Below, piece after piece: positions 698 through 42,545 of a DNA stretch of 45,980 bases (the first letter of the stretch is position 1; each line of letters opens with the position of its first letter). The DNA comes from a virus (Duplodnaviria; Heunggongvirae; Uroviricota; Caudoviricetes). The stretch is from IMG/VR virus record IMGVR_UViG_2529292882_000016; one strand, 5' to 3'. The notes beneath the pieces were generated by a model that was not told where the DNA came from, searched no databases, and worked only from the letters and a program-made list of their open reading frames with translations. Made by a program: the position numbers and the translations under genes.

Positions 698-1060
698 GGG
701 GCTGATTCTGGATTCGACGGGATTTGCGAAACCCAAGGTGCATGCCGAGGGGCGGTTGGCCTCGTAAAAAGCCGCAAAAAATAGTCGCAAACGACGAAAA
801 CTACGCTTTAGCAGCTTAATAACCTGCTTAGAGCCCTCTCTCCCTAGCCTCCGCTCTTAGGACGGGGATCAAGAGAGGTCAAACCCAAAAGAGATCGCGT
901 GGAAGCCCTGCCTGGGGTTGAAGCGTTAAAACTTAATCAGGCTAGTTTGTTAGTGGCGTGTCCGTCCGCAGCTGGCAAGCGAATGTAAAGACTGACTAAG
1001 CATGTAGTACCGAGGATGTAGGAATTTCGGACGCGGGTTCAACTCCCGCCAGCTCCACCA
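698..1060 (+). ncRNA. ssrA: tmRNA (SsrA, transfer-messenger RNA)
   Basis: Starts GGGGCTGATTCTGGATTCGACGGG, contains the tag-reading-frame region (GCAAACGACGAAAACTACGCTTTAGCAGCTTAA) and ends GGGTTCAACTCCCGCCAGCTCCACCA; about 363 nt, matching E. coli ssrA. Confidence 0.95.
1034..1060. repeat. 27-bp direct repeat CGGGTTCAACTCCCGCCAGCTCCACCA (att core at the intact ssrA end)
   Basis: Identical 27-mer recurs at 41072..41098; flanking bases differ on both sides (g/a upstream, c/a downstream). Confidence 0.85.
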
Positions 1061-1161
1061 CTTTTGATAGGACTGCAACCGGACGGCGACAATAAAAACA
1101 GCCACTTACGGACACTGACCAGACAGTGAGCGGACTTAAAAAAGACAAAAATATACACGCA

Positions 1162-1177
1162 AAATGCACGTGCATTT
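1162..1177. repeat. 16-bp perfect palindrome AAATGCACGTGCATTT near the left prophage end
   Basis: Seen directly; half-site AAAATGCAC also occurs near the right end (41002..41010). Function not established. Confidence 0.6.
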
Positions 1178-1183
1178 CAAAAA

Positions 1184-1218
1184 AGCCTCTGATTGTGAAG
1201 CCAGAGGCTTTTCTATTT
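1184..1218. terminator. Bidirectional rho-independent terminator-like hairpin
   Basis: AGCCTCTG...CAGAGGCT stem followed by TTTTCTATTT on plus and preceded by an A-run (U-run on minus); lies just downstream of the minus-strand tail-fibre operon. Confidence 0.55.
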
Positions 1219-1258
1219 GTAACTAAGAGTAACAATTCAACATGACGCAACCTACCAA

Positions 1259-1831
1259 TTACGTAACGTCAAACGCCCGGATTGAAACCAAATCATTCAG
1301 ACTATTCAGCTCTTGCTTCATCTCCCGCTGACGCTGATAAATCTCGTCATTGCGATCGACCTGTGCCTGCGCCATTGCTGCCGCCAGTTCTTCAAGTTCC
1401 TGCATCGACAGTTTCACCTGTTGATTATCAGCGTCGCCCCACGCAAGGGCGGTTCGTGCCGTATCAGATTTTGCAGCCATTACCACCGGATAGAGACGGG
1501 CCAGTGAGTCTGGGCCAGCATTCCAGGTGCGACCGTTCCATTCGAACGTGAACGGCTGCGACTCCTGTTCTGCGCGCCATGCCTCGATTTCCATCTTTTT
1601 GGCATCTTTTGCCGCTGCGATAAGTTCGGGCGTGACGGTGAACGGGGCAATTTCACCCCATTTGCCGCTCTGTAACTCTTCCCAGATGCGCTGGCCTGTC
1701 GGTGCGGTATCATCCTGCATGGCGGTATACAGGACGAATTCCGTTTCACCCTCAAATAACACCTCGCAGTCAACCGCACCATTTTCAAGGTAATGCGCGT
1801 TTCTGATGCCTTTTACCGCTCTGATTTTCAT
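1259..1831 (-). CDS. Tail fibre assembly/chaperone-like protein (190 aa)
   Basis: Immediately downstream of the Stf-like gene in the tfa position; C-terminal helical region loosely resembles Tfa-type chaperones. Confidence 0.55.
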   Translation of the reverse strand: MKIRAVKGIRNAHYLENGAVDCEVLFEGETEFVLYTAMQDDTAPTGQRIWEELQSGKWGEIAPFTVTPELIAAAKDAKKMEIEAWRAEQESQPFTFEWNGRTWNAGPDSLARLYPVVMAAKSDTARTALAWGDADNQQVKLSMQELEELAAAMAQAQVDRNDEIYQRQREMKQELNSLNDLVSIRAFDVT

Positions 1832-1844
1832 GTTTTATTCCCCG

Positions 1845-4800
1845 TTACTCGATGCGCACAAACAGGCAGATACGACCGCTTGTTCCGTAAGAGTCCCTGA
1901 CCCCGGATAACGCCATATAACGCCCCGGAAAAGTGTACCCTGTTGCTCCTGCACTTGGTGTTGAACCGTAAGAGCCAGGCCCGGCAGAAGATATTGTGCA
2001 CGAAAGATTAACTCCGCCCAGTTGTGACCCCTGCACCACATCACCCAGGCCAATTTTGATTTCTTTATCCCCGGAAGTTGTTCCGCGATAAACAGCCAGC
2101 ACCGGAACACCCACTGCCGGGTATTTGAAATATGAGCCTGAGCCCGCCATCCTGGACAACAGGTACGCCAGTGAATCTCCGTCGTAGACAACTACCCGCG
2201 ATGACATGTTCCAGCTGTTATCGCTGTCGTTGTACCGGTACTGCATATAGTGAATGCAGTGTTCACCCTGATAATACTGGTTGTAACACATCAGGGTTTT
2301 AAATTTGCGGACTGTGTCAGATTCACTGTTGGCGTACGGGGACCACATCACGTCAATAATGCCGTTAAATTGCGTGGTACCGGTAAGCAGTTGTGATGAA
2401 TCTGTAATACTGACCGCATACCGCCCCGGCGTGACTTTCTTCAGCCATTCAACGAAATCAGACAGTCCCTCAAACGCCAGGGCTTCAGTGCTGGTAAATG
2501 CCTGACCAAATCCATGCATGCCGGACAGTGCCAGCCTGCCCGGTGTGCGGTCGCGGATATCACTCTGGGGTTCCATCGTCGCAGCCGCTTTCAGTTCAAG
2601 CTCCGTGCGCATGGCCTCAGGCGTGTCCAGTGCCAGTAATGCGCGGGCTTTTTCTGACAGTTGCGCCAGTAAAATCCGGCCCTCTGCACTGAAATAAGGC
2701 AGCGTGTTTTCTTCCGGTGTTATCTGGCTGACAGCCGTTAACACGTCATTAAGCGGCTGTTTACCTGCCAGTGCTTTAGTGACCGTTGTCGCAAAGTTCG
2801 GGTCATTACCCAGCGCCGCTGCCAGCTCGTTCAGCGTGTCCAGGGCTTCAGGTGATGAGTCAACCAGCGCAGCAAGCAGTTTGCGGACAAACTCCGCATT
2901 GGCTATTTCATTACCTGCTGCATCATCCGGCGGGGTTGGCGCGGACGGAGTTCCGGTCAGTGCCGGACTTTTCAGTGGCGCGCGGGCTTCAATCAGCGCA
3001 ATAAGTGAAGCCTCATCAACCTTCAGGTTTTCCCAGCCAACCAGAAAACCACCATCTGATGACACCGCGCAACGGTTATAATAAATATGACCATTAACAC
3101 CGTAATAAATAATTATCTTATAGGCATACTCATCATTCGGGCTGGTTTTAGGTTGTGGCCAGATAATTTCAATAACACCGTTTGTCTGAATGCCTGGCAC
3201 TACCACATCTGTGTCTGCAAATACGGCATAACGACCGGGTTTTGCTGTTTTTACCCAGCGGAGAAAATCAGTCCCTGATTTAAACTCTGTTCTGTCGCTG
3301 AATAACATCCCGAAACCGAACATGCCAGGAATCGCCAGTCGACCTTCGGTGCGGTCGTAAATATTCTCCTGTGCATCCTTCTGTGCTGCATTGCCAAGTT
3401 GTGGCGTCAGATTCGTCCAGGTGACCGGGGCGGAGATATTATCGCCACGAACGGTCATGAGTATCCGTCCGTCTTTTCCAAAAAACAGAACCAGCTTTGT
3501 TGCTGTCTGGCTTGTTTTGTCGCCCCAGCCATTATCCAGCCAGATAATTTCTGTTATTCCGGTTGTTTCTTCCGTTTGCGTGGAAAAGGTGTAATACCGT
3601 CCCGGGTGCAGGTTGTGCGCAGTTCTGGCTACAGTCGCCATATCGCTGGCAATAATTGCCGTACTTCCGGCGTCCGTCATTCCGTAACCAAATGCACCAG
3701 GTAGCGCAACACGGCCTTCCGAGCTGTCGTAAAGGTCTGTCTGAATGTCCCTTACCGCTGCGCTTTTCAGCTCAAGCTCATTGCGCATGGTTTCCACTGT
3801 GGCCTGTGCCAGCAGTGACCGGGCTTTTTCTGACAGTGGAGACAGTGAAGCATTTCCGTCCTGATTAAAGCACAGAAGATTATCTGCCCGTTCTTCCAGA
3901 TTACTGATTGCGGTTAACACGTCACTGAGTGGTTGTTTACCCGCCAGCGCGTTCATGATTGTTGTCGCAAACTCCGGGTCATTGCCCAGCGCCGCTGCCA
4001 GCTCGTTCAGTGTGTCCAGGGCTTCCGGGGACGAGTCAACCAGCGCAGCAAGCAGTTTGCGAACAAATGCCGCGTTCGCCATCTCCAGCCCGGTCGCATC
4101 GTCCGGTGGGGTTGGTGTGGTTGGCGTGCCGGTGAACGCCGGGCTGTCCAGCGGCGCTTTTGTTTTCGTCTCGTCCATGACGGTTTTGACGGCCTTCGGT
4201 GTGGCTGCCAGTTCTTCGCTGTCGTTATCCGTATCACTACAGAGTTGCACCAGGCCTTTTTCTGTCGTGGAAGCATTGCTTCCCTTCAGGTCATCAACTA
4301 TCCGTTGCGCCTCGTCCCTGTGCTGTTTCGCACCCTGCTCGCTTTTTGCAGCCGCTTCGGCGCTGGCTTTTGCCTCACCGGTCAGCGTTGCGGCATCAGC
4401 AAGTTTATCGACCGCTTTCTGGACTATCGCGTCAGCATCCTTGACAGCCTGTTCTGCGCGGGCGGCATCCTGTGTGGCAGATGATGCCAGCTGTGCCACC
4501 TGCTTTTTATCTTCGGCAACGGCTTCTGCATTCTGCTGTACGTTATCCGCCAGCGTCTCGCAGTCGCTCTTGATTTGTTGCGCATCAGCGACATGTTGCC
4601 CGGCCTGTTGTTCGCTTTCCGCTGCCGCTTCCGCGCTCTGCTGCGCCTGCGCCACCATTTCCTCAAAGCGTTTCACCACGTCGGGTTTGAGGTCGCCTTC
4701 ATCAAGGGCAGTCAGAAAGTCGTTCAGCGTGCCGGGCCTGGAGTCGTCGTATACAGCAATGTCGCCAACACAGTACTCATCGCGCCAGTCCTGTCTCAGA

Positions 4801-5553: not shown

Positions 5554-6570
5554 TTATACACTCGACGCATTATACCAGGTGCCGTTAATTAATTTCTGAA
5601 TAGGTCTTGAATACAGTTTTAGTGCTGATGACGGGGCAACATCACCACCAACCACGACATACCCCGAAGGAACGGTAAAATCATCGTCATAGTGCCCGTC
5701 AACCCTCTGACTACCCAGCCTGATATCCTGCACACCGCCATTTCGCTGCTGATAACGGGCATCAAAGTTTCCGTAGTCTGACGGTGTTACCCGTCCTGAA
5801 ACATTCACTGCCCGGTTACTTTGTAACGCGCCATTCTGAAAACGGAATACGTGCTGACCATTGGCATAAACATCCAGCAGGCCGTCACCATTCTGTTTCA
5901 GGCCGGTATCGTTATCCCCGAAAGCAATTGAGTTTCCACCCAGCGCGTTCTGAACGCCGATACCCAGCGCACCATTGACCTGAGAACCGCCGCCAACAGA
6001 CACTTTATGCGACATGGATATTTCACCCGTCCGCAGATTAATAGTGAACGGTCGAAGTGGACCAATATCGCCATTCTCGCCCTGATTTTCCCGGGTGGGA
6101 ATAAGATGCAGGCACTCTTCCGAACGACGAAAAATAAGGCCAAAAGTGTCGTTGAAAATCCTCAGCGCATTAACACCACGGATTTTTAGTTCTCCGGTCA
6201 TGGTATCACCATCACGCTGAACGGCATTTTTTGCCTTGTCCACCGTGGGTTTTAATCCGAGGTTTTCAACAGCCTCATCCTTGTCTTCCACATCCGAAAG
6301 GTTATTTTTTATCAGCAATGCCTCTTCGTTAATTGCACCACCCACCAGTAATAATATGGCTTTATATAGCTGATCGTGTTCTTCTTTATTCAGTTCTATC
6401 CCGGCCTTCTCAATGACACCACAGATTTCCTCCTGAATGGCATCCCACATGGCACTGTTCAGCCAGGTGGCAAGACGTCCTGTGCGAAGATTTCCATCAG
6501 TAAATCCGTTCTTGCCCGGGCCAAACTTATCTTTTACCGCTGTCAGCGTATCAATCCTGTGCATCTTCAT
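5554..6570 (-). CDS. Tail fibre protein (338 aa), P2 gpH / Mu S-like
   Basis: Contains the GDTMTGEL motif typical of myovirus tail fibres; Gly/Asn-rich C-terminal region; follows the baseplate genes. Confidence 0.7.
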   Translation of the reverse strand: MKMHRIDTLTAVKDKFGPGKNGFTDGNLRTGRLATWLNSAMWDAIQEEICGVIEKAGIELNKEEHDQLYKAILLLVGGAINEEALLIKNNLSDVEDKDEAVENLGLKPTVDKAKNAVQRDGDTMTGELKIRGVNALRIFNDTFGLIFRRSEECLHLIPTRENQGENGDIGPLRPFTINLRTGEISMSHKVSVGGGSQVNGALGIGVQNALGGNSIAFGDNDTGLKQNGDGLLDVYANGQHVFRFQNGALQSNRAVNVSGRVTPSDYGNFDARYQQRNGGVQDIRLGSQRVDGHYDDDFTVPSGYVVVGGDVAPSSALKLYSRPIQKLINGTWYNASSV

Positions 6571-24925: not shown

Positions 24926-25309
24926 TCATCGTTTCAACTGAAAGTGAGGTCCGTCTTTCAGTGTTTTCCAGTCCCCGCCCCATTCGATGGCAGTTCCCAG
25001 CTCTGCGGCAGCCTGCTTAAATGCCTGTGCGATTTTCTCGTACAGAGGCCAGTCCCATGACACCTGGCTGCCAATGTAGGCCACAACATCCACCGCATCA
25101 CCGGTCAGGTGGCGGCTGTTCATGGTCTGGCTCTTACCTTCTGCAACCAACTGTTTCTGGCGATACTTACTGCGCAGACCTTCCGTAATACCGAAATCAA
25201 CCTCCGTCAGCTCCAGTGCACGGCGAACGACAGCAACCAGCTGTGGTTTGACGCCCTCCAGATTTTTTTCACTGCGACGGCTGAATCTGAATTTACCCGA
25301 CATATTCAC
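24926..25309 (-). CDS. Endolysin, peptidase M15-type (127 aa)
   Basis: SRHLTGDAVDV (H-x6-D) and C-terminal DGPHFQL motifs typical of zinc D-Ala/L-Ala-D-Glu peptidase endolysins; follows holin-like genes. Confidence 0.75.
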   Translation of the reverse strand: MNMSGKFRFSRRSEKNLEGVKPQLVAVVRRALELTEVDFGITEGLRSKYRQKQLVAEGKSQTMNSRHLTGDAVDVVAYIGSQVSWDWPLYEKIAQAFKQAAAELGTAIEWGGDWKTLKDGPHFQLKR

Positions 25310-25581
25310 CTCAACAATGGAAAGATTTTTGTGACGTTCCCGCGTGCGCGTATCACCAGCACGCAGAACAGCAGGTTAAAAAACACTTCCAGCCAGCCCG
25401 TTGCTAACGGGCGACCACACAGATAGCTGAGGGGCGCAAAGGCATACAGCAGCATCAGCAGCCAGGCCAGCCATGACATCAGCGGTTTATGTCTGGAATC
25501 ACGGCGACGATAAAAAAAGAGCGTCAGCACGATAACCGTGCATAACGCTACATTCAGCAATCCGGGAATGTTACTTAACAT
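25306..25581 (-). CDS. Membrane protein, lysis-associated (start probably at the ATG at 25581)
   Basis: Three hydrophobic segments; between holin-like gene and endolysin. Confidence 0.4.
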   Translation of the reverse strand: MLSNIPGLLNVALCTVIVLTLFFYRRRDSRHKPLMSWLAWLLMLLYAFAPLSYLCGRPLATGWLEVFFNLLFCVLVIRARGNVTKIFPLLR

Positions 25582-25963
25582 TGCCGCCTCCTCCACCCCG
25601 CAGACGGGAGAACAGGCCGGACACCAGCGATGCAATATCCTGCTGGTGGATGAACGAGAGAATCTTCACCGACACCACTGACACCAGTACTGCACACAAT
25701 GCGTCGACAGGTGCACCGTCAAACCCTGTATGCTTTACCAGCCAGGATGCCAGAACCTCTGCCCCCAGCACGCCGATAATGAACGACACCAGAAAATGCG
25801 CCGCCACACGCCAGGCTGAAAGCGCCTGCGGAATTGTTGCCACAAATAACGCCCCGGCGAACGCACCAAACACAATCCCGAAATCCGTTCCGGTAAACAG
25901 CCCGAATACCGTCGCCCCGCCGAGCGCCACAGCCGTGCCGGAACCGGATAAGGGTTCAGACAT
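25571..25963 (-). CDS. Holin-like membrane protein (~130 aa; start at ATG 25963 with AGGAG RBS)
   Basis: Gly/Ala-rich transmembrane helices; first gene of the lysis cassette. The longer ORF to 26188 has no ribosome-binding site. Confidence 0.5.
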   Translation of the reverse strand: MSEPLSGSGTAVALGGATVFGLFTGTDFGIVFGAFAGALFVATIPQALSAWRVAAHFLVSFIIGVLGAEVLASWLVKHTGFDGAPVDALCAVLVSVVSVKILSFIHQQDIASLVSGLFSRLRGGGGGNVK

Positions 25964-26023
25964 ACTTTTTTCTCCTGTAAATAAAAAAGGGCCACCAGCG
26001 GCCCGTAAAAAAAACACCCCGTC

Positions 26024-26050
26024 AAAGGCACCCGCAGATGCCTTTTGTGT
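26024..26050 (+). terminator. Hairpin AAAGGCA...TGCCTTT followed by TTTTGTG
   Basis: Seen directly in the holin/cassette intergenic region; function uncertain. Confidence 0.3.
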
Positions 26051-26127
26051 GGTGTTATCTGATGTGATGTGCGCCGGGCGTGGCGCGGATATGAAAAAGG
26101 CCCGCCGCAGCGAGCCCCAGAAACAAC

Positions 26128-26149
26128 AAACCCGCTCGGCGGCGGGTTT
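26128..26149 (-). terminator. Hairpin AAACCCGC-TCGGCG-GCGGGTTT with U-rich tail on the minus strand (tR'-like candidate)
   Basis: 8-bp GC-rich stem; on the minus strand it is followed by TTTGTTGTTTCT; lies upstream of the holin gene in late orientation. Confidence 0.35.
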
Positions 26150-26192
26150 AAGCTGTGTGGCGAAGTAACCACTCTTAACACGATACAATACT

Positions 26193-34759: not shown

Positions 34760-34840
34760 CACACTGGATACTCTGTTATCCAAGAATGTTAAACGCGAGA
34801 ACCCAAAGTATCAAGAAATTCTGTTACTTTAGTATCAGCA
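34760..34840. promoter_or_regulatory. Divergent promoter/operator region (OR-like) with repeated GTATC/GATAC half-sites
   Basis: GGATACTCTGTTATCC (34766..34781), AGTATCA at 34807 and 34831, TCTGTTAC at 34822; between the divergently transcribed cro-like and cI-like genes. Confidence 0.4.
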
Positions 34841-34860
34841 GCCATGAAAGGAGAAGAAAA

Positions 34861-35517
34861 ATGAAATCTTTAGGTGAACGCCTCATCAACGCACGACAAA
34901 AAGCTGGGTTAACGCAAGATGCGTTGGCTAAAAAAGCAGGGGTCACCAGAGTTGCAATCAGTAAAGCCGAGCAAGGCCTTACAAAAAGTTTCAACGGTGA
35001 CACCCTTTTTAAAGTCGCAGCTGCACTGCAGTGTTCACCGCAGTGGCTTCAGAACGGAGATGAAAAAGATAAGCATTGGGAAAATAATGTTAAGAGCTGC
35101 CCACAGAGAGACACAGCACACTCTTACCCTGTAATTAACTGGGTTCAGGCAGGATTATTCGCAACTGCTGGTGATGACTACAACATGTATGATCAGGATA
35201 ATTGGAGGCATTCTGTAAAATACGCTGGTGAGAGGGGGTTCTGGCTGGAAGTGCACGGAGACTCAATGACTTCGCCCGTAGGAATAACATTTCCTGAAGG
35301 AATGTCGATCCTTGTCAACCCAGATAAAGAAGTTTTTTCAGGGTGTTACGTCATCGCCAGAAAAAAATCTACCAATGAAGCAACATTCAAAAAATATATT
35401 TCTGAAATGGGAAAGGCGTTTCTAAAGCCCCTTAATCCACAATATCCAATCATAGAAATGGACAATGATTGCGAAATAGTAGGTGTTGTGGTTGATGCCA
35501 GGTGGGATATTTTCTGA
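34861..35517 (+). CDS. cI-type repressor, HTH plus LexA-like S24 peptidase domain (218 aa from ATG 34861)
   Basis: N-terminal HTH (LTQDALAKKAGVTRVAISKAEQG) and C-terminal S24-like region (WLEVHGDSMTSPVGITFPEGM...VIARKK...); AAGGAG RBS. Confidence 0.85.
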   Translation: MKSLGERLINARQKAGLTQDALAKKAGVTRVAISKAEQGLTKSFNGDTLFKVAAALQCSPQWLQNGDEKDKHWENNVKSCPQRDTAHSYPVINWVQAGLFATAGDDYNMYDQDNWRHSVKYAGERGFWLEVHGDSMTSPVGITFPEGMSILVNPDKEVFSGCYVIARKKSTNEATFKKYISEMGKAFLKPLNPQYPIIEMDNDCEIVGVVVDARWDIF

Positions 35518-35539
35518 CCAGACACAAAACACAAAAAGA

Positions 35540-35620
35540 AACCAAAGTATCAAAAATCACTTGCCATACCTTGATACCTTAGTTACCATGAAGCAAGGTT
35601 CGTAACTGAGGTATCATCTC
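35540..35620. promoter_or_regulatory. Second operator-like cluster (OL-like) with the same GTATC/GATAC half-sites
   Basis: AGTATCA (35546), TTGATACC (35571), GTAACTGAGGTATCA (35602..35616) immediately upstream of the early-left operon. Confidence 0.35.
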
Positions 35621-36124
35621 ATGATCAATAAAGCTACAACTCTTGACTGTCTCGAAGAACTGAAAAACCTCGGCAGCCTCATTACACTAATAGCAAAAGC
35701 AACACCAGATGCTACGCTCTCTAGCGATATAGAGTCATGCGCAGGACTGGCATGGGATATGACAAATAGCATATCCAGAAAGCTATCGTCAGCAATGCTT
35801 TTACAGAACAAAAATTCTGCAATCAACAACCGTCTTCGCACCCAACGCGAAGACTGCGGCTTAACAACAGCCGAACTCGCCAGACTGCTCGACCTCGATG
35901 AAGAAATCATCATCCAGTGGGAAAGCGGAGAGCACGAACCAACCATCAGCATGCTTATCCCTCTGGCTAATGTTCTTGGCTGTGATCCGATGTGGCTGTT
36001 AACTGGCGAGGTTACTCCTCCGGAGCAACCAAAAAGTGAGGAGCAGCAACACCATGACGCATCTCAACAAGTTTGCTCCTTATCTCGCGAAGCTCTTCTA
36101 CGGAAGAACCAATACCAATGGTGA
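35621..36124 (+). CDS. XRE-family HTH protein (167 aa)
   Basis: HTH segment LTTAELARLLDLDEEIIIQWESGEHEPTISMLIPLANVLGCDPMWLLTG; GAGGT RBS; first gene after the OL-like region. Confidence 0.6.
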   Translation: MINKATTLDCLEELKNLGSLITLIAKATPDATLSSDIESCAGLAWDMTNSISRKLSSAMLLQNKNSAINNRLRTQREDCGLTTAELARLLDLDEEIIIQWESGEHEPTISMLIPLANVLGCDPMWLLTGEVTPPEQPKSEEQQHHDASQQVCSLSREALLRKNQYQW

Positions 36125-36252
36125 CATAATCGCCGCTTCGCCCCTCAAGGTACATGCGAACATTTTTATCAATCATTGCGGAAACAGTCTCAATATGAAA
36201 ACACTTCTGAGACTCGCTATATAGCAGAACATATAAGTCAGCTGAGGAAGCC

Positions 36253-36618
36253 ATGAAAAAGTTCGAAAACATAACTGTTCTCCATGTTGATGACTTTGAT
36301 TATACAAACCCGGACCTTCTCCCGGAGGTTGTAAAGGCAATAGATGTTGCCGATATAGTGATTAGAGGAAAGAGAATTGTCAAAAACAGGCTCGCATGCA
36401 CTTCAGGAGCAATGACAGAAACAACCTCACAACAAGATGATTATGAAGGCATTTGTCTGGAGCCTGACTCATTTGCGGTAAATGTTTATCATTTATTGCA
36501 TGCAACACAGGTATTACATATGTCAAGTAATCACGAAACAAAAACACTTGGCAGCGAAATTCTGAATTTTGCATGTGAATATGCAAAAGCTGCTGCCGAA
36601 AAAGAATTAGCGCAATAA
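36253..36618 (+). CDS. Hypothetical protein (121 aa), AT-rich
   Basis: ORF only; GAGGAAG upstream of the ATG. Confidence 0.45.
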   Translation: MKKFENITVLHVDDFDYTNPDLLPEVVKAIDVADIVIRGKRIVKNRLACTSGAMTETTSQQDDYEGICLEPDSFAVNVYHLLHATQVLHMSSNHETKTLGSEILNFACEYAKAAAEKELAQ

Positions 36619-36814
36619 CAATAAATATTCCCTAAATGTTTATTACGGTTTTATCGCCGGGGATTGTTGCAACCTTTATTCGCAGGAGATTATGTTATGA
36701 CTTTCCTGAAACATAAGGCATCGTATAAAACTACCCGCCTCATTGCACAACATGGAGATTCTTATCTTCATATAGCCAGCCTGTATTTGCGCAAAGCATA
36801 TGGGAGATAAGTCA

Positions 36815-37003
36815 ATGGAAGAAAAACAACAAAACATAACACATAAAAAAGTAAGAGTGTTGCTAACCATTGAAAATGGTGAAGTAATTTACTCAAAACA
36901 TCTGTTGGATAATGAATTCGTTGGCTGCATGGATACATTTCTGTGGATGGCAAAAAGAGCGGGTTACACGATTATTCCACCAGCAAAGGAGCAAACATTA
37001 TGA
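36815..37003 (+). CDS. Hypothetical small protein (62 aa)
   Basis: GGGAGA RBS before ATG 36815; stop overlaps next ATG (ATGA). Confidence 0.4.
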   Translation: MEEKQQNITHKKVRVLLTIENGEVIYSKHLLDNEFVGCMDTFLWMAKRAGYTIIPPAKEQTL

Positions 37004-37581
37004 GTCATTCAGAGTTCCGACCAGAAGTTACGCCACATGGCATAAAAATTGGCAATACAACCATTGATTATGTTGAGGCCGTACAGCGGCTTAATGATGG
37101 TGAATACGATTATCCAAACTCACACGGTTTAAGAATCATGCAATGTATTGCTGAAGCCGATGATGCAGGGTTGCTGGGACGATTTTCAGTCGATATGAAG
37201 GTTGCTCAGTGGCGATGGCTGTATGTGACTACGTTTATAAATGAAGAGAAAGACAAGAACGGTACCGTTGATATCCCTAACGATAACGGAACTACAGATC
37301 ACGCGGTTATTTACAAGGGTAAACATGGTTGCCTGAGTATCTACCCCGGACCACTTCGTATTGCCCTGCAAAACCACGTCGAATGGGGATTTATTGAAAA
37401 ATATGGCGAAGCTGAAGGCATGGGGCGAGTTCTGTTTCTCTATCAAAAAATGCTCATCGCAGATCCTGATAATGGTTTCATTATTTCTGCTATGGGGCGC
37501 GAAGGGCTTGAACTCCTTCTGGATGAAATGATGAACGACCTGAATACTCATGGTATGCCAGAAGCGCCAGTGACACATTAA
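37000..37581 (+). CDS. Hypothetical protein (193 aa)
   Basis: AAGGAG RBS 7 nt upstream of ATG 37000; translationally coupled to the upstream small ORF. Confidence 0.5.
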   Translation: MSHSEFRPEVTPHGIKIGNTTIDYVEAVQRLNDGEYDYPNSHGLRIMQCIAEADDAGLLGRFSVDMKVAQWRWLYVTTFINEEKDKNGTVDIPNDNGTTDHAVIYKGKHGCLSIYPGPLRIALQNHVEWGFIEKYGEAEGMGRVLFLYQKMLIADPDNGFIISAMGREGLELLLDEMMNDLNTHGMPEAPVTH

Positions 37582-37757
37582 ATATTAAGAAGAATATAAT
37601 TCTTCCATCTTTTACTAACCGTTTATATGAAAAGCAACCGTGAATTAAACAGAGTAAAACTGATTTTAATCCTTACCACAGTACTGACACTAACTGAAAT
37701 CATTATTCTCTTTATTGCGCTGTCAGTCGGTTAAAAATATCTGGATACCACAGACCA

Positions 37758-37946
37758 ATGAGACTGTATTTCACAATAGTAATTTTACTGGCAATTATCG
37801 CATGCATTTACGGATTACTCGTTCCGTTCCTTATATCTATGAAGGATACGATAGCAGTTATTTCTGGCTTTGCACTGGCGTTTCTGACCCCGCCCTGCAT
37901 TTATGCCATTTACAAGGGTCTTTCTTTCACTAAGGATAAAAGATGA
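37758..37946 (+). CDS. Small membrane protein (62 aa, two predicted transmembrane segments), coupled to the SPFH gene
   Basis: Hydrophobic sequence MRLYFTIVILLAIIACIYGLLVPFLIS...; stop overlaps the SPFH gene ATG (ATGA). Confidence 0.4.
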   Translation: MRLYFTIVILLAIIACIYGLLVPFLISMKDTIAVISGFALAFLTPPCIYAIYKGLSFTKDKR

Positions 37947-38770
37947 AAAAAATTATTTTTGCTTTAGCCATTGTTCTGCCGACTATTGGCCTTGTCGGTT
38001 GCGATCGCGTTGAACCAGGTAATGTTGGCATCAAGGTAAATAAACTGGGCGACGACAAAGGCGTCGGTGAGGTGGTCGGTGTTGGTCGCTACTGGACTGG
38101 CTGGAATACTGAAGTTTATATCTTCCCCACCTTCAAACAAATGAAGACCTACGATGAACCGTTCAGTTTCCAGATGAGTGACGGTACAACCATCGGCTAT
38201 CACATCGGTGTGGCCTACAAAGTTGATCCATCCAAAGTTACCACGGTGTTTCAGACCTACCGCAAAGGCGTGGATGACATTACCGACACTGACCTGCGCC
38301 AGAAGATCGCCGACGCACTCAACCGACTGGCCAGCAAAATGACCACCGACAAATTTATCGATGGCGGGAAGTCTGAACTACTGGATGCAGCTCTTAAAGA
38401 CATTCAGGAGGAAATGACACCCATCGGTATTCAGGTAATGAGCCTCTCATATGTAGGTAAGCCGGAGTACCCGTCAACCGTTATCGACAGCATTAATGCC
38501 AAAGTCACGGCGAACCAGAAAACACTGCAGCGCGAGCAGGAAGTAAAACAGCGCGAAGCGGAAGCCAATATGTTGCGCGCAGAAGCTGCCGGACAGGCTG
38601 ATGCGATTCGCACAAAAGCCCAGGCCGAAGCTGATGCTATTCGTTTACGCGGTGAAGCTCTGCGCCAGAACCCCGGCGTTATGGAGCTGGAAGCCATCAA
38701 TAAATGGAACGGCACACTGCCGCAATACATGACCAGCGGTGCTAATACACCATTTATCCAGGTTAAATAA
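37943..38770 (+). CDS. SPFH/band-7 (prohibitin/stomatin-like) domain lipoprotein (275 aa)
   Basis: Signal peptide with lipobox LVGC; central SPFH-like region and Ala/Glu-rich coiled-coil tail (EAEANMLRAEAAGQADAIRTKAQAEADAIRLRGEALRQNPGVMELEAINKWNG). Confidence 0.75.
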   Translation: MKKIIFALAIVLPTIGLVGCDRVEPGNVGIKVNKLGDDKGVGEVVGVGRYWTGWNTEVYIFPTFKQMKTYDEPFSFQMSDGTTIGYHIGVAYKVDPSKVTTVFQTYRKGVDDITDTDLRQKIADALNRLASKMTTDKFIDGGKSELLDAALKDIQEEMTPIGIQVMSLSYVGKPEYPSTVIDSINAKVTANQKTLQREQEVKQREAEANMLRAEAAGQADAIRTKAQAEADAIRLRGEALRQNPGVMELEAINKWNGTLPQYMTSGANTPFIQVK

Positions 38771-38804
38771 CTTATACGCCCGGCAGGCCGCCGGGCTAAG
38801 GGAA

Positions 38805-39170
38805 ATGCAAATGAACACCCAGAATACTCAACCGCAAATAATGAACTATGACCCGAATCTGACGTCATGCGGACGCATGGCAAAACAAACCGTTCGATTA
38901 ACTTTCGGGCTATGGGAATACCGCGAAACATTCGAAGTTACTGTCGGCGGCAATCTGACCGGACTGGATGTTATCAGTTGCGCTATTGAAAGCCTGTACG
39001 CAACGCTGCCTTATGAAGAAGTCGAGGATGAGCGCGATATCATAGCCACCATTAATATCGGCGGACTGGAATGCAAGGATGAAAACCTGTCCGGAGAGCT
39101 CTGGCTTGCCGGAATGCTTATCTCAGCAGAAATTATCAGCATTGAACCCGCTACAAACATACGACTCTGA
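38805..39170 (+). CDS. Hypothetical protein (121 aa)
   Basis: ORF with AGGGA upstream of ATG 38805; preceded by a GC-rich intercistronic hairpin (GCCCGGC...GCCGGGC). Confidence 0.45.
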   Translation: MQMNTQNTQPQIMNYDPNLTSCGRMAKQTVRLTFGLWEYRETFEVTVGGNLTGLDVISCAIESLYATLPYEEVEDERDIIATINIGGLECKDENLSGELWLAGMLISAEIISIEPATNIRL

Positions 39171-39201
39171 AGTTCTCACTATTCAGAGAACAGGAGAAAA
39201 A

Positions 39202-39444
39202 ATGTTCGCTTTGATTAATCAGGGACAACTGTATACCGACAGTGCCGGTTACCCGATAAAAATTATTCGCTGCATAAATAACACTGTGTTGTACAGAAGA
39301 ATGGATGGGCAAATGCAGTCGATAAAAATAAACGATTTTAATGGACTGTTTGAACGGATCGATCACCAGGAATACCGACAAATTCTGGCAGAAACAGAGC
39401 AGGAAGCTCATCTGAAAAAATTACGGGCCATGAAAAGGAAGTAA
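39202..39444 (+). CDS. Hypothetical protein (80 aa)
   Basis: AGGAG RBS upstream of ATG 39202. Confidence 0.45.
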   Translation: MFALINQGQLYTDSAGYPIKIIRCINNTVLYRRMDGQMQSIKINDFNGLFERIDHQEYRQILAETEQEAHLKKLRAMKRK

Positions 39445-39447
39445 AGA

Positions 39448-39594
39448 ATGAATAAAGCCTTTGAGCTATGGGTGCGCCAGCGTTACGGCAATCGCTATGA
39501 CCTGACGCGAGATGTTGACGGTTTCTACTGCCGTGAAATTGTGAAACGAATGTTTGAAGTGTGGTGCCACTGCCGTGGGCTGAATGTTGTATGA
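39448..39594 (+). CDS. Hypothetical small protein (48 aa)
   Basis: AAGGAAG RBS; ORF MNKAFELWVRQRYGNRYDLTRDVDGFYCREIVKRMFEVWCHCRGLNVV; below the ORF-track size cut-off. Confidence 0.3.
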   Translation: MNKAFELWVRQRYGNRYDLTRDVDGFYCREIVKRMFEVWCHCRGLNVV

Positions 39595-39602
39595 GGTGAA
39601 CT

Positions 39603-39812
39603 GTGGGGCTGGATTGCGTACCTATATCAACCTACTGCCGCAACGCAGGAGAAACGGTTGATGCCGTTAACAAACGGATACAAAGAGGAATATGGAAAGA
39701 AGGGGTACATGTATTAAAAGTCGACGGAGTTAAAGAACGTTGGGTCGACTTAATGGAGATTACAAAATGGGCAAGAAAGAACAAGGATCACTATCTCTCC
39801 CTAGAGGAGTAA
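39603..39812 (+). CDS. xis: Excisionase-like protein (69 aa; GTG start assumed)
   Basis: Small basic protein immediately upstream of and overlapping int, as in lambda xis-int; winged-helix-like composition. Confidence 0.5.
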   Translation: MGLDCVPISTYCRNAGETVDAVNKRIQRGIWKEGVHVLKVDGVKERWVDLMEITKWARKNKDHYLSLEE

Positions 39813-40939
39813 CTATTCGCCAGCATAAAACTGGTAGCACTCTGGTTATCACTTTTACATATAAAGGGGTTCTGTGTCGGGAGCCCCTCTCCAGAATGGA
39901 AGTAAACGCGCGCGGTGTGAAGTACGCTGAGCGTCTGCTGGGAGAAATAAAAAATCAGATTATCGATGGTACCTTCGAATATGCAAAATACTTCCCCAAC
40001 TCCCAAAAGCTGGAGTTGTTCGGGGGAGTGAAAAAAAACAAAAATATAAAATCTTACCTGGATGAATACCTGATTATCTGCCAGAACCGTAACCTGTCAC
40101 CATCGACAATTAGAGGTTATGAAAAATGCCTGTCGGCGCTGTCAGCATTGCATAAATTTCATGTATCAGAACTGACACCTGCAGTACTAAAAAACTGGAT
40201 CGCCAGCAGAAAAACAAAACTGAAAACTATCCGCAATAATCTTTCATTCTTGCGCAGCGCCATAGATGAAGCGGTGACCGATGGTTTGTTAACAATAAAT
40301 CCTGTCACGCTAGTCAGCGCCAGCCGGTATCACGTATTGGACAACACACCAGGCAGTGATGATTACGAGGTCGATCCTTTTACACCAGCGGAGACGGCAG
40401 CAATCTATGACGCCTGTCATTACCCGGAATGGCGAAATCTGTTTCGCTTTGCCTTTAATACAGGACTGCGCAGCTCAGAATTGTGCGCGTTGCGCTGGAC
40501 GGATATAGACTTTATCGGCAACACCGCGCATGTTCAGACTGCAAGCGTAGTCGGGGTAATCAAAAGCACCAAAACAAAAGCCGGCACCCGCAAAGTGCAA
40601 CTGAACAGCGAAGCGCTGGCGGCTCTTCAGGCACAAAAGCCCTACACGGCGCTAAAGAGCGACTTCATATTCAGCGATCCGAAAACTCGCGCTCCTTGGG
40701 CAAACGCAGATGCGATCCGAAAAAAAGCCTGGGTACCAACCCTTAAAAAAGCTGGTGTACGCTATCGCAATCCGTACCAGACACGCCACACGTTCGCCAC
40801 TCGGCACATTAGCCAGGGCGTTAACCTGTTCTGGCTTGCTGGTCAGATGGGGCATAAAGGACCGGAAATGCTGTTCAGACATTACGGCTCTTACCTTGCA
40901 GAATACGATGGAAAAACGGCGATTTCTGCAACCCCGTAA
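39767..40939 (+). CDS. int: Tyrosine integrase, lambda Int-like (390 aa from ATG 39767)
   Basis: C-terminal catalytic region with RHTFATRHISQG...RHYGSYL (R/H/R/Y-type motifs); transcribed toward the att repeat at 41072. Confidence 0.85.
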   Translation: MGKKEQGSLSLPRGVTIRQHKTGSTLVITFTYKGVLCREPLSRMEVNARGVKYAERLLGEIKNQIIDGTFEYAKYFPNSQKLELFGGVKKNKNIKSYLDEYLIICQNRNLSPSTIRGYEKCLSALSALHKFHVSELTPAVLKNWIASRKTKLKTIRNNLSFLRSAIDEAVTDGLLTINPVTLVSASRYHVLDNTPGSDDYEVDPFTPAETAAIYDACHYPEWRNLFRFAFNTGLRSSELCALRWTDIDFIGNTAHVQTASVVGVIKSTKTKAGTRKVQLNSEALAALQAQKPYTALKSDFIFSDPKTRAPWANADAIRKKAWVPTLKKAGVRYRNPYQTRHTFATRHISQGVNLFWLAGQMGHKGPEMLFRHYGSYLAEYDGKTAISATP

Positions 40940-41071
40940 CGGCAAAATATTTCAAAATGTTGTACAGAATCAGGACGTTACCGGGACAACAATATGTACG
41001 TAAAATGCACATAATTCATTGTTTGAAAAAATAAATCGTTCATATTCAATAAATTGGATTAATCACGATCA

Positions 41072-41098
41072 CGGGTTCAACTCCCGCCAGCTCCACCA
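41072..41098. repeat. Second copy of the 27-bp att direct repeat (displaced ssrA 3' end)
   Basis: Identical to 1034..1060; the downstream flank (AAATTCTCCATCGGTGATTACC...) carries a terminator hairpin and is then followed by a P4-type integrase, as at the chromosomal ssrA locus. Confidence 0.85.
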
Positions 41099-41145
41099 AA
41101 ATTCTCCATCGGTGATTACCAGAGTCATCCGATGAAGTCCTAAGA

Positions 41146-41178
41146 GCCCGCACGGCGCAAGCCCTGCGGGCTTTTTTG
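41146..41178 (+). terminator. Rho-independent terminator (probable original ssrA terminator)
   Basis: GCCCGCA...TGCGGGC stem followed by TTTTTTGTG. Confidence 0.6.
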
Positions 41179-41303: not shown

Positions 41304-42545
41304 ATGGCAAGACAAACCAAACCTCTATCCGTTAAAGAAATAGAATCAGCCAAACCCAAGGAGGCGGACTACGTTCTCTATGATGGCGATGGCCTTGAGC
41401 TACTCATTAAATCCAGCGGGAGTAAAATCTGGCAGTTTCGCTACATTCGCCCTGTCACCAAGAAACGAGCAAAGAAGAGCATAGGCTCCTACCCGTCAGT
41501 TACCCTTGCCGATGCCAGAAACTACCGTGCAGAGTCCCGCTCACTACTGGCTAAACAGATCGATCCGCAGGAACATCAGCAAGAACAATTGCGCAGTTCG
41601 CTGGAAGCCAAAACCAACACTTTCCAACTCGTAGCTGAACGTTGGTGGAATGTGAAGAAAGCCAGTGTGACAGAGGACTATGCGGAAGATATCTGGCGCT
41701 CTCTTGAAAGAGACGTCTTTCCTGCGATTGGCGACGTTAGCGTTACAGATATTAAAGCTCATACACTGGTTCAGGCCGTACAACCGGTTCAGGCCAGAGG
41801 AGCACTGGAAACTGTTCGTCGCCTGTGCCAACGTATTAATGAGGTCATGATCTATGCCCAGAACACAGGGCTGATTGATGCTGTTCCCAGCGTTAATATC
41901 GGTAAAGCCTTCGAGAAGCCTCAGAAAAAGAACATGCCCAGCATTCGACCGGATCAGCTACCTCAGTTAATGCAGACGATGCGAACAGCCAGCATTAGCC
42001 TTTCCACACGCTGCCTGTTCATGTGGCAACTTCTTACTATTACCCGCCCTGCCGAAGCGGCTGAAGCTCTCTGGGAAGAGGTAGACATAGAAGCGCGAGA
42101 GTGGAAGATTCCTGCAGCACGCATGAAAATGAACCGCGACCATACTGTTCCATTGTCAGATGAAGCAATTGCGATACTAGAGATGATGAAGCCGTTAAGT
42201 GGAAATCGAGAATTTATCTTTCCCAGCCGCATCAAGCCAAACCAGCCGATGAACAGTCAGACCGTAAACGCATCGCTAAAACGCGCAGGTTTTGGTGGGG
42301 TGCTCGTTTCACACGGCCTGCGATCTATCGCCAGTACAGCCCTTAATGAGCAGGGATTTCCACCTGATGTTATTGAGGCTGCACTTGCTCATGTGGATAA
42401 GAATGAGGTTCGTCGTGCGTATAACCGTAGTGATTATCTTGAGCAGCGACGGCCTATGATGCAGTGGTGGGCTGATTTTGTGATGGCTGCAGATCACGGT
42501 AGTATGATTGAAGGAGGGATAAAGGCAATGCGGTTAGTTGGATGA
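41304..42545 (+). CDS. intA: P4-type tyrosine integrase, CP4-57 IntA-like (413 aa)
   Basis: N-terminus MARQTKPLSVKEIESAKPKEADYVLYDGDGLELLIKSSGSKIWQFRY and C-terminus ...HVDKNEVRRAYNRSDYLEQRRPMMQWWADF typical of P4-family integrases; about 200 bp after the ssrA 3' end. Confidence 0.85.
   Translation: MARQTKPLSVKEIESAKPKEADYVLYDGDGLELLIKSSGSKIWQFRYIRPVTKKRAKKSIGSYPSVTLADARNYRAESRSLLAKQIDPQEHQQEQLRSSLEAKTNTFQLVAERWWNVKKASVTEDYAEDIWRSLERDVFPAIGDVSVTDIKAHTLVQAVQPVQARGALETVRRLCQRINEVMIYAQNTGLIDAVPSVNIGKAFEKPQKKNMPSIRPDQLPQLMQTMRTASISLSTRCLFMWQLLTITRPAEAAEALWEEVDIEAREWKIPAARMKMNRDHTVPLSDEAIAILEMMKPLSGNREFIFPSRIKPNQPMNSQTVNASLKRAGFGGVLVSHGLRSIASTALNEQGFPPDVIEAALAHVDKNEVRRAYNRSDYLEQRRPMMQWWADFVMAADHGSMIEGGIKAMRLVG

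Follow-up and report, generated by a model that had tools for sequence, protein, structure and literature searches.

Positions 37,758 to 38,770 of a 45,980-nucleotide stretch of tailed-phage DNA (IMG/VR record IMGVR_UViG_2529292882_000016; hereafter the window, by which we mean the whole stretch at its full length) encode two overlapping genes: one for a 62-residue membrane protein with two hydrophobic helices, which we call the hairpin, and one for a 275-residue lipoprotein with an SPFH (Band 7) domain. Comparison of their sequences across phages and bacteria indicates that the hairpin, a member of a family marked by a P-x-L-I-S motif in its turn, is a conserved partner of SPFH proteins that is distinct from NfeD. 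The reading that we prefer, and hold only tentatively, is that the two proteins constitute one module, a scaffold of two components that would lie on the periplasmic side of the inner membrane and insulate or stabilize the membrane of the infected cell.

The positions of the two open reading frames (ORFs) and the overlap between them, as given in the initial annotation of this DNA, were confirmed (Table 1). The SPFH ATG (37943-37945) and the hairpin TGA (37944-37946) share the tetranucleotide ATGA, and an AAGGA Shine-Dalgarno sequence lies 6 nt 5' of the ATG. An identical 4-nt overlap recurs in phages P88, KpCHEMY26, Fraca, ST512-KPC3phi13.5, Pseudomonas phage 5400 and phiE125. Together with the two hydrophobic stretches of the upstream product, this junction upholds the proposed coupling of the lipoprotein gene to that of a small two-helix membrane protein. 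The SPFH protein matches PHROG 200 ('lipoprotein', E=5e-114) and the hairpin PHROG 1130 ('membrane protein', E=2.5e-23); since, in addition, both ORFs have hundreds of homologues, neither is a product of chance.

Profile searches and structure prediction place the 275-residue protein, which is a complete SPFH protomer, in the SPFH/Band 7 superfamily. Its N-terminus consists of an MKK n-region, a hydrophobic core (residues 4-16) and the lipobox LVGC at residues 17-20, that is, the basic n-region, hydrophobic core and lipobox ([LVI][ASTVI][GAS]C) of a lipoprotein signal, and the lipobox Cys is conserved in at least 90% of 103 family members. The Pfam Band_7 profile (PF01145) matches residues 22-208 with E=1.8e-30 and 106.8 bits against a cut-off of 23.6. 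An AlphaFold model built from 103 diverse homologues attains a predicted local distance difference test score (pLDDT) of 93.2 and a predicted template modelling score (pTM) of 0.75, and places a β-rich and then α/β SPFH body at residues 20-175, a single 65-residue helix at 178-242 (22% Ala; Glu, Gln and Arg 11% each), a short helix at 244-254 and a less confident tail. In that tail lies a family-specific motif whose W is invariant and whose G and P are at least 90% conserved in the 103-sequence alignment. When compared with the PDB using Foldseek, the model aligns over nearly its full chain (240-300 columns, probability 1.00, E 6e-14 to 1e-8) with HflC/HflK (7vhq), prohibitin (8rrh/9o9z), erlin (9vvj), stomatin (9z7u), QmcA (8z5g) and flotillin (9bq2). 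At the sequence level the only PDB matches are HflK (E=6e-4; the phmmer alignment spans residues 114-240) and the coiled coil of prohibitin-2. An SPFH fold is thus predicted by both profile and model, and the SPFH-like core, LVGC lipoprotein signal and long Ala/Glu-rich helix that the initial annotation had read from the letters are all recovered. The labels 'serine protease', carried by records of phiP27 and of phages encoding Shiga toxin (Stx), and 'transposase', found in other phage records, were rejected: Band_7 is the only domain found. The former was most likely carried over from names such as 'membrane protease subunit / regulator of protease activity HflC'.

The hairpin has hydrophobic stretches at approximately residues 3-27 and 32-52, separated by a 4-residue turn, and a basic C-terminus. 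None of its 35 close homologues is named, but family alignments display a turn motif P-x-L-[IV]-S in which Pro23 is invariant and Ser27 nearly so. Like other members of the family, it falls in the range of about 55-80 residues, has two transmembrane helices and the turn motif, and is encoded directly 5' of an SPFH lipoprotein gene; on these sequence features, we assign it to this Pfam-unclassified P-x-L-I-S family, which corresponds to PHROG 1130 and carries the PHROG category 'moron, auxiliary metabolic gene and host takeover'. Pfam searches with 22 members recovered no known family, save for one marginal holin hit (E=0.15), and no match to the Imm family was obtained from the hairpin. Holin identity was considered and rejected: the topology of two transmembrane helices with both termini inside would fit a class II holin, but the lysis cassette lies elsewhere (24.9-26.2 kb, on the other strand) and no holin family is matched.

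The pair extends well beyond prophages of this type. At least nine unrelated phage groups, some temperate and others strictly virulent, have a hairpin-family gene immediately before that of an SPFH lipoprotein. They include the P2-like P88, P1-like phage-plasmids, the HK97-like Fraca, Klebsiella prophages, the Mu-like Pseudomonas phage 5400 and Burkholderia phiE125 and, among virulent phages, the N4-like KpCHEMY26, the Vequintavirinae KpS8 and 4MG and the T7-like Desulfovibrio phage ProddE. A hidden Markov model (HMM) of the hairpin detects all of these with E-values of 1e-17 to 1e-10, other than the weaker phiE125 (4e-3). Within IMG/VR a hairpin lies immediately upstream in 146 of 157 SPFH loci (77 of 78 close ones, and 69 of 79 distant ones with approximately 40% identity). 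Among loci sampled as one genome per species, from Enterobacterales to Leptospira and Bacteroidota, an HMM-detectable hairpin precedes 63 of 86 SPFH ORFs, and several of the HMM misses (Sutterella, Cupriavidus and others) have an upstream hairpin upon inspection; of 80 species-level genome loci, most carry the arrangement. The loci that do lack one are the most distant, plus two from Shigella/E. coli in which an insertion sequence has replaced the upstream DNA. When the neighbours in 78 diverse loci were compared all against all, the hairpin alone proved to be conserved from phylum to phylum. The idea of a further constant partner (a protease or FtsH, for example) was rejected, since these loci yielded only lineage-specific synteny and an antisense-ORF artefact; nor is a second SPFH gene conserved nearby in them. 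In Leptospira, the chromosomal pair adjoins sdhABC-type genes and an ArsR regulator. About 20 species of Dyella/Rhodanobacteraceae have a fixed chromosomal locus (e.g. L105, 2976-5433, minus strand) in which the pair is divergent from genes for an M56 sensor-protease of BlaR1 type and a repressor of BlaI type, and a hemerythrin-domain gene lies downstream; this may be an envelope-stress regulon. Since these pairs in Leptospira and Dyella are chromosomal and outside prophages, the module is common to phages and cells. In the Vequintavirinae (L004, 2701-2865; L169, 1332-1496) we also observed a soluble 54-residue ORF (MLLNLKA.TWEKLQHLA...) between the hairpin and SPFH genes, which by eye looks like a ribbon-helix-helix protein.

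That the two proteins act together is suggested by their repeated natural fusion. Such fusions, of 320-390 residues, account for approximately 20 of the 150 best representatives of 50%-identity clusters, and share a layout in which a strongly basic linker leads from the hairpin into a third hydrophobic helix; this helix ends with the lipobox Cys, retained in all of them, and the SPFH body comes next. A distant fusion was confirmed at the DNA level in three assemblies, on phage-like contigs, and a close one (347 residues, P1-like, SPFH region 92% identical) in two independent assemblies. What sets the latter apart from the unfused arrangement is one A fewer in the A7 run by the SPFH start codon (ATGAAAAAAACG to ATGAAAAAACG), for which slippage-prone expression, a homopolymer sequencing error and a genuine allele are the candidate explanations. 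The window, too, has an ATG followed by A7, with the hairpin stop codon coming before the run. The AlphaFold model of the 347-residue fusion (pLDDT 88.5, pTM 0.70) has two long helices joined by a 4-residue turn (pLDDT approximately 90), then the third helix and an SPFH protomer. As hairpin and SPFH body are here parts of one polypeptide, their relative topology is fixed.

The fusions also bear on which side of the membrane the SPFH body would occupy. Across the hairpin family, the N- and C-termini carry net positive charge and the turn does not, a positive-inside pattern from which both termini are predicted to be cytoplasmic. Given the basic linker after helix 2 of the fusions, their third helix would run from inside to outside, leaving the lipobox Cys and the SPFH body in the periplasm. 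In E. coli an Asp at position +2 of a lipoprotein is a Lol-avoidance signal, which retains the protein in the inner membrane. The lipobox Cys is followed by Asp-Arg in 92 of 92 alignable close (enterobacterial) homologues, whereas position +2 is variable elsewhere. On the strength of this Asp, and of fusions whose third helix, with its N-terminus in and C-terminus out, ends at the lipobox Cys, the lipoprotein is predicted to stay in the inner membrane with its SPFH body on the periplasmic face. This would be the same side as that of HflK/C, which PMC12048511 describes as a structure that 'extends into the periplasm'.

Genomic position is informative about when the pair is made. Downstream of Pban, the promoter that C1 controls, canonical P1 has tRNA genes, then plp/upl (in the opposite orientation), tciABC, trnI and ban. 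Pban/Oban is kept in P1-like variants (99.4% identity over 2 kb), where the hairpin-SPFH pair takes the exact place of tciABC, ahead of trnI-ban (Table 1); the tciABC genes of P1 are annotated by homology as TerB-like tellurite/colicin resistance determinants. The early operon of the P2-like P88 has the pair between cox and the replication gene, and in virulent phages the pair sits among genes for RNA polymerase, dUTPase, ligase and DNA polymerase, adjoining the DNA polymerase gene in ProddE. Because of these positions, and of its place in the string of genes that leads from repressor to int in the window, expression of the module early or midway in lytic development fits better than expression in the lysogen. 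The plp/upl genes of P1 were also considered as a version of this pair and rejected: Plp has 125 residues, is encoded on the opposite strand and has a BLASTP E-value of 17, and the P1-like variants keep plp/upl besides the SPFH pair. As P1 Plp is unrelated, the essentiality data on plp/upl are irrelevant here.

Several characterized systems offer points of comparison. The closest analogue of how the pair may work is the B. subtilis YdjG/YdjH-YdjI (SamGHI) system with PspA, in which small membrane partners encoded in the same operon, YdjG/H, recruit the SPFH protein YdjI, itself without a transmembrane segment, to the membrane in a membrane-stress function (PMC8581546; bioRxiv 10.64898/2026.02.06.704340). 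YdjI differs in being cytosolic and in working with PspA, whereas the window SPFH body is predicted to be periplasmic and lipid-anchored, and the hairpin is likened to YdjG/H by description. Among phages, the SPFH genes of the Kayviruses (MbpS/MbpV), the Kuttervirus PhiSH19, Bruynoghevirus and phiCbK-like phages belong to the same PHROG 200 family. In most of these, too, a small membrane protein gene abuts the 5' end of the SPFH gene: MbpV with one transmembrane helix, a 72-residue ORF with two in PhiSH19 and a three-helix ORF in Karma. These partners represent other small-protein families and lack the P-x-L-I-S motif. The PhiSH19 ORF (1932-2150, minus strand, in L262) is unannotated; its two transmembrane helices are separated by a long basic loop and it has a 4-nt overlap with the SPFH start. 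An SPFH protein with a small membrane partner hence appears to be a general phage theme, of which the P-x-L-I-S hairpin appears to be the version met most often when the host is Gram-negative. Of candidate relatives, just one has been the subject of experiments: PM0222 (Pmorf0222; OAZ06802.1) of a Pasteurella multocida prophage, an 'HflK/C-like' SPFH protein of 25-35 kDa, which is expressed in the lysogen, is found in outer-membrane vesicles, acts as a TLR1/2 agonist and contributes to virulence (PMC9872710). Elsewhere in the full-text literature, we found no functional study of phage SPFH proteins, only annotation mentions and speculation. A purely functional analogy is provided by T4 Imm/Sp and like proteins, small, early, periplasm-facing inner-membrane proteins with which phages alter the envelope of the infected cell; they are not known to be related to the pair in sequence or fold.

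In the scheme that we tentatively favour, the SPFH lipoprotein would be exported, lipid-anchored and retained in the inner membrane, where its protomers would come together as a ring or dome sealing off a patch of membrane on the HflK/C side. Such assembly is to be expected from its solved full-length relatives, which form rings that build domes (PMC12624060). HflK/C, prohibitins and stomatins have a transmembrane element in cis; here the hairpin would provide it in trans. Produced early in lytic development, and not in the lysogen, the module would insulate or stabilize the inner membrane against premature depolarization or lysis, pore-forming attack or the entry of competing phage DNA. With low confidence, we rank this role above the regulation of a protease, in view of the early expression indicated by gene positions, the replacement of tciABC, the envelope-sensor genes beside the Dyella pair, the part that SPFH proteins of bacteria play in membrane stress and the place of mbpS in the lysis-gene region of Kayvirus. 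The initial annotation had suggested a membrane-scaffold exclusion or host-modulation function. A scaffolding, host-modulating role stays plausible, but its framing as prophage exclusion is weakened: the pair is present in N4-like, T7-like and Vequintavirinae virulent phages and in chromosomes outside prophages, and its positions imply lytic expression. A bolder version, which we consider improbable, is that of a previously undescribed, self-contained membrane-caging system of two components, common to bacteria and at least nine phage lineages, with which phages would, early on, fence in patches of the inner membrane from its periplasmic side. It could block the entry of competing phage DNA, or blunt pore-forming or depolarizing attack by colicins, membrane-targeting abortive-infection effectors or premature holin firing, and signal peptidase II would cut the fusions into an integral anchor with three transmembrane helices and a lipoprotein cage subunit.

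A number of considerations weigh against the scaffold that we favour. Oligomerization, lipidation, inner-membrane retention and contact between hairpin and SPFH protein are all predictions, and the protective role is argued from context. An Arg at position +3 might weaken the retention conferred by Asp at +2. With the repressor gene upstream in the same orientation, some expression in the lysogen is conceivable. Searches of PADLOC-DB 2.0 returned no defence-system family for either protein at E-values up to 0.1, and identity with a known anti-phage defence system was accordingly rejected. A further point concerns the specificity of the pair. Between E. coli phages, residues 21-265, the core of the mature SPFH protein, agree at 98-100% in amino acids and at 86-92% in DNA, a disparity indicative of strong purifying selection, and this core is combined with three hairpin types that are only 25-35% identical to each other, the signal peptide switching with the hairpin. 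A highly specific interface would therefore have to rest on the short conserved motif, which may be all that the hairpin needs; alternatively, the hairpin may contact mainly the signal peptide or third helix and act jointly with the signal-peptide helix, to which it is covalently joined in the fusions. Linkage plus recombination within the conserved core would give the same pattern. We also observed that hairpin, signal peptide and the last 10 residues form three very different cassettes around this near-constant core, which suggests gene conversion in the core or strong constraint. If the candidate relative PM0222 belongs to the family, its vesicle location (PMC9872710) would likewise point away from an inner-membrane protein, and a 2026 paper says of a phage genome with an SPFH lipoprotein gene that the reason for carrying it 'remains unclear' (PMC13239085).

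The main rival to the insulating scaffold, in our estimation unlikely, is that the module mimics HflK/C: a periplasmic assembly, with the hairpin as adaptor, would bind or enclose FtsH, or mix with or displace HflK/C, and would thereby alter the breakdown of phage regulators (CII, CIII, Xis-like) or membrane proteins, as lambda CIII does from the same early-left position. SPFH proteins do recurrently partner with membrane proteases, and the likeness to HflK/HflC is considerable, in that they are the best Foldseek matches and, besides the prohibitin-2 coiled coil, HflK is the only sequence-level PDB match. They also share with the window protein, as predicted here, an N-terminal inner-membrane anchor and the periplasmic placement of the SPFH body, wall helix and C-terminal cap region, the membrane side being that given for HflK/C in PMC12048511. 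Lambda CII is the historic tie of HflK/C to phage biology, and similar speculation has appeared in phage papers (PMC8540360, PMC10269572). However, the identity is only 16-18%, and the weak NCBIfam hits fall more than 100 bits under their cut-offs (HflK TIGR01933, 23.4 versus 159.4 bits; HflC TIGR01932, 24.4 versus 134.4 bits). Moreover, there is here a single SPFH gene, whose product has a lipid anchor and a separate hairpin, as opposed to the K/C gene pair with its transmembrane helix in cis. Judged by sequence, then, the protein is not an HflK or HflC orthologue. The mimicry is also at odds with the frequency of the module in strictly virulent phages, which take no lysogeny decision (noted in PMC8540360), with the lack of any linked ftsH or protease gene in the 78 diverse loci, and with chromosomal copies that resemble self-contained two-gene units. 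Far less probable than any other alternative is a genuine NfeD-SPFH pair of the stomatin-operon type, in which the small protein would be a minimal NfeD, as the comparison with cellular NfeD-SPFH pairs in the initial annotation might suggest. That comparison stands as an analogy, since a small membrane protein gene is coupled to an SPFH gene in the same gross arrangement and the ring of the QmcA-YbbJ complex (8z5g) is among the structural matches, but fails as a statement of family membership. Neither the window protein nor 22 relatives matched PF01957 at E-values up to 1, and the hairpin profile found nothing in the PDB at E-values up to 10, even though the PDB contains QmcA-YbbJ. Moreover, approximately 50 of the 62 residues would be membrane-embedded, leaving no space for an OB-fold. 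The SPFH body of QmcA faces the cytoplasm, whereas that of the window protein is predicted to be exported as part of a lipoprotein. The minimal-NfeD identity is thus effectively refuted.

Two further alternatives were considered. One, less probable than the HflK/C mimicry, is that hairpin and SPFH dome set the timing of lysis, sequestering or restraining holins or buffering the membrane potential in an antiholin-like manner or as lysis inhibitors. SPFH scaffolds compartmentalize membrane proteins, and the hairpin is holin-like in its gross features (two transmembrane helices, both termini inside, a basic C-terminus). The one pointer suggestive of this role is the arrangement in Kayvirus, in which mbpS lies between lysK and tgl and adjoins the gene of the holin-like MbpV (PMC7150955). 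In the window, by contrast, the lysis cassette is approximately 12 kb away in a different transcription unit, only one of 22 hairpins has even a marginal holin match, lysis genes are absent from the vicinity of the Leptospira and Dyella chromosomal copies, and in most phages the pair lies among early or DNA-metabolism genes. The other, to which we give slightly less credence again, is lysogenic conversion: a constitutively expressed pair would exclude superinfecting phages, or a surface or vesicle lipoprotein would act on the animal host. This would agree with the behaviour of PM0222 (PMC9872710), with the repressor gene lying upstream on the same strand and no terminator called in between, with the 'moron' category of the hairpin in PHROG, and with the carriage of the locus by 571 of 5426 complete E. 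coli genomes (10.5%), on chromosomes and approximately 100-kb phage-plasmids and in up to three copies per genome. Yet no promoter or terminator of its own was detected for the pair in the window, and so no moron-like cassette; it lies within the C1-repressed ban operon of P1-like phages and the early operon of P88, and is also found in virulent phages and cellular chromosomes. The want of a PADLOC match tells against it as well, and the +2 Asp and the fusions point to the inner membrane and not to the cell surface. The 'superinfection exclusion protein' of PhiSH19 was examined as evidence for exclusion and rejected, being a separate soluble acidic protein encoded 200 nt upstream of the SPFH gene.

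The setting of the pair in the window is that of an E. coli prophage related to phiP27, to which the region is 97.4% identical (gene L05 being the homologue of the SPFH gene), with approximately 94% identity to a set of Stx2-converting phages. A string of genes on the same strand runs from a CI-like repressor through int to a terminator-like site, matching the phiP27 order L11 to L01; after the helix-turn-helix (HTH)/CII-like gene come three ORFs of unknown function, hairpin, SPFH, DUF5406, DUF4222, xis and int. Genes for an anti-repressor, a regulator and replication proteins point in the opposite direction from approximately 33.8 kb. Relative to the repressor gene, the pair is on the side, and on the strand, leading to xis-int, in agreement with the early-left placement in the initial annotation, and 'early-left operon' is a reasonable reading of the gene order. 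Between 34.0 and 41.2 kb, no terminator-like sites were called on the plus strand besides one inside int and one after it, and no plus-strand promoter-like sites were called flanking the pair; an autonomous moron cassette was rejected on these grounds. The stem-loop after the SPFH stop codon (Table 1) has no U-tract, is absent from the terminator scan and is no better than shuffled sequence.

Table 1. Coordinates of the hairpin-SPFH pair, its parts and its surroundings; positions are those of the window unless a comparison locus (L) is named.
Feature	Position	Strand	Basis
62-residue hairpin inner-membrane protein gene	37758..37946	+	ORF; two hydrophobic segments; PHROG 1130 E=2.5e-23
Turn-motif codons P23-F-L-I-S27-M-K-D-T31 between helices, predicted periplasmic face	37824..37850	+	family alignments
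Predicted translational-coupling junction	37932..37946	+	AAGGA Shine-Dalgarno 37932-37936 within hairpin gene; ATGA overlap 37943-37946
SPFH (Band 7) lipoprotein gene, 275 residues, homologue of phiP27 L05	37943..38770	+	PHROG 200; Pfam; model
Signal peptide with lipobox L17-V-G-C20, then Asp21-Arg22	37943..38002	+	regular expression, hydropathy
SPFH/Band_7 domain, residues 22-208	38006..38566	+	Pfam PF01145; model secondary structure
65-residue Ala/Glu/Gln/Arg-rich helix, residues 178-242, equivalent of the 'wall' helix of SPFH cages	38474..38668	+	DSSP of model; composition
Family-specific C-terminal motif W255-N-G257-T-L-P260	38705..38722	+	alignment of 103 sequences
GC-rich stem-loop, between SPFH stop and likely ATG of next gene	38778..38796	+	-17.1 kcal/mol; z=-1.46 versus shuffles
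Same-strand gene string, CI-like repressor through int to terminator-like site	34786..41173	+	PHROG, Pfam
CI-like repressor	34786-35517	+	
HTH/CII-like gene	35621-36124	+	
xis	39603-39812	+	
int	39740-40939	+	
Terminator-like site within int	40425-40448	+	terminator scan
Terminator-like site after int	41159-41173	+	terminator scan
tciABC replacement slot between upl and trnI-ban	L003 4731-5775 versus L263 (P1 NC_005856) 934-1630		
347-residue fusion loci	L177 2501-3544; L178 64-1107		compared with unfused L003 4940-4970

The lysis cassette referred to above comprises two holin-family genes (25306-26188) and an endolysin gene (24926-25309) on the minus strand. Immediately downstream of the pair, the DUF5406 gene is listed at 38739-39170 (plus strand) with a GTG start at 38739 that overlaps the SPFH gene; the PHROG and Pfam matches of its product begin at residues 25 and 36, and its true start is probably the ATG at 38805 or 38811, after a GGGA ribosome-binding motif, leaving a spacer of 34-40 nt from the SPFH stop. 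A second tyrosine integrase gene (41304-42545, plus strand; PHROG 1, E=6e-72) begins approximately 365 nt past int and its terminator-like site, which suggests tandemly integrated elements or an integration hotspot at the end of the window. Just beyond it, a 767-residue ORF (42684-44987, minus strand) matches the C-terminal two-thirds of the 1258-position profile of PHROG 18693 (unknown function; E=0), and may be cargo of the neighbouring element. In phiP27 (NC_003356) the hairpin ORF (6159-6347) is unannotated in RefSeq/GenBank though 100% conserved, and most Stx-phage records likewise leave it unannotated despite 97-100% conservation, while calling the SPFH gene 'serine protease'; both look like annotation errors.

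Catalogues already contained the gene families themselves (PHROG 200 and 1130; 'SPFH domain-containing protein'). Judging from the literature, what is new is the hairpin, sometimes fused, as an alternative to NfeD, the predicted periplasmic inner-membrane topology, and the spread of the pair to virulent phages and chromosomes, and these points shift the interpretation away from a prophage exclusion gene. They also correct the 'serine protease' and 'transposase' labels and supply the hairpin ORF missing from reference records. The PHROG 200-type family is present in 722 phage records, which ranks SPFH genes with the more widely distributed accessory genes in tailed phages, and the P-x-L-I-S hairpin would represent a second kind of SPFH partner besides NfeD. 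The existence of this partner, its occasional fusion and the predicted periplasm-facing body make the question of their function tractable with a two-gene construct. If the scaffold does protect or insulate the membrane of the infected cell, it would represent a structural, non-enzymatic strategy of host takeover and phage-phage competition.

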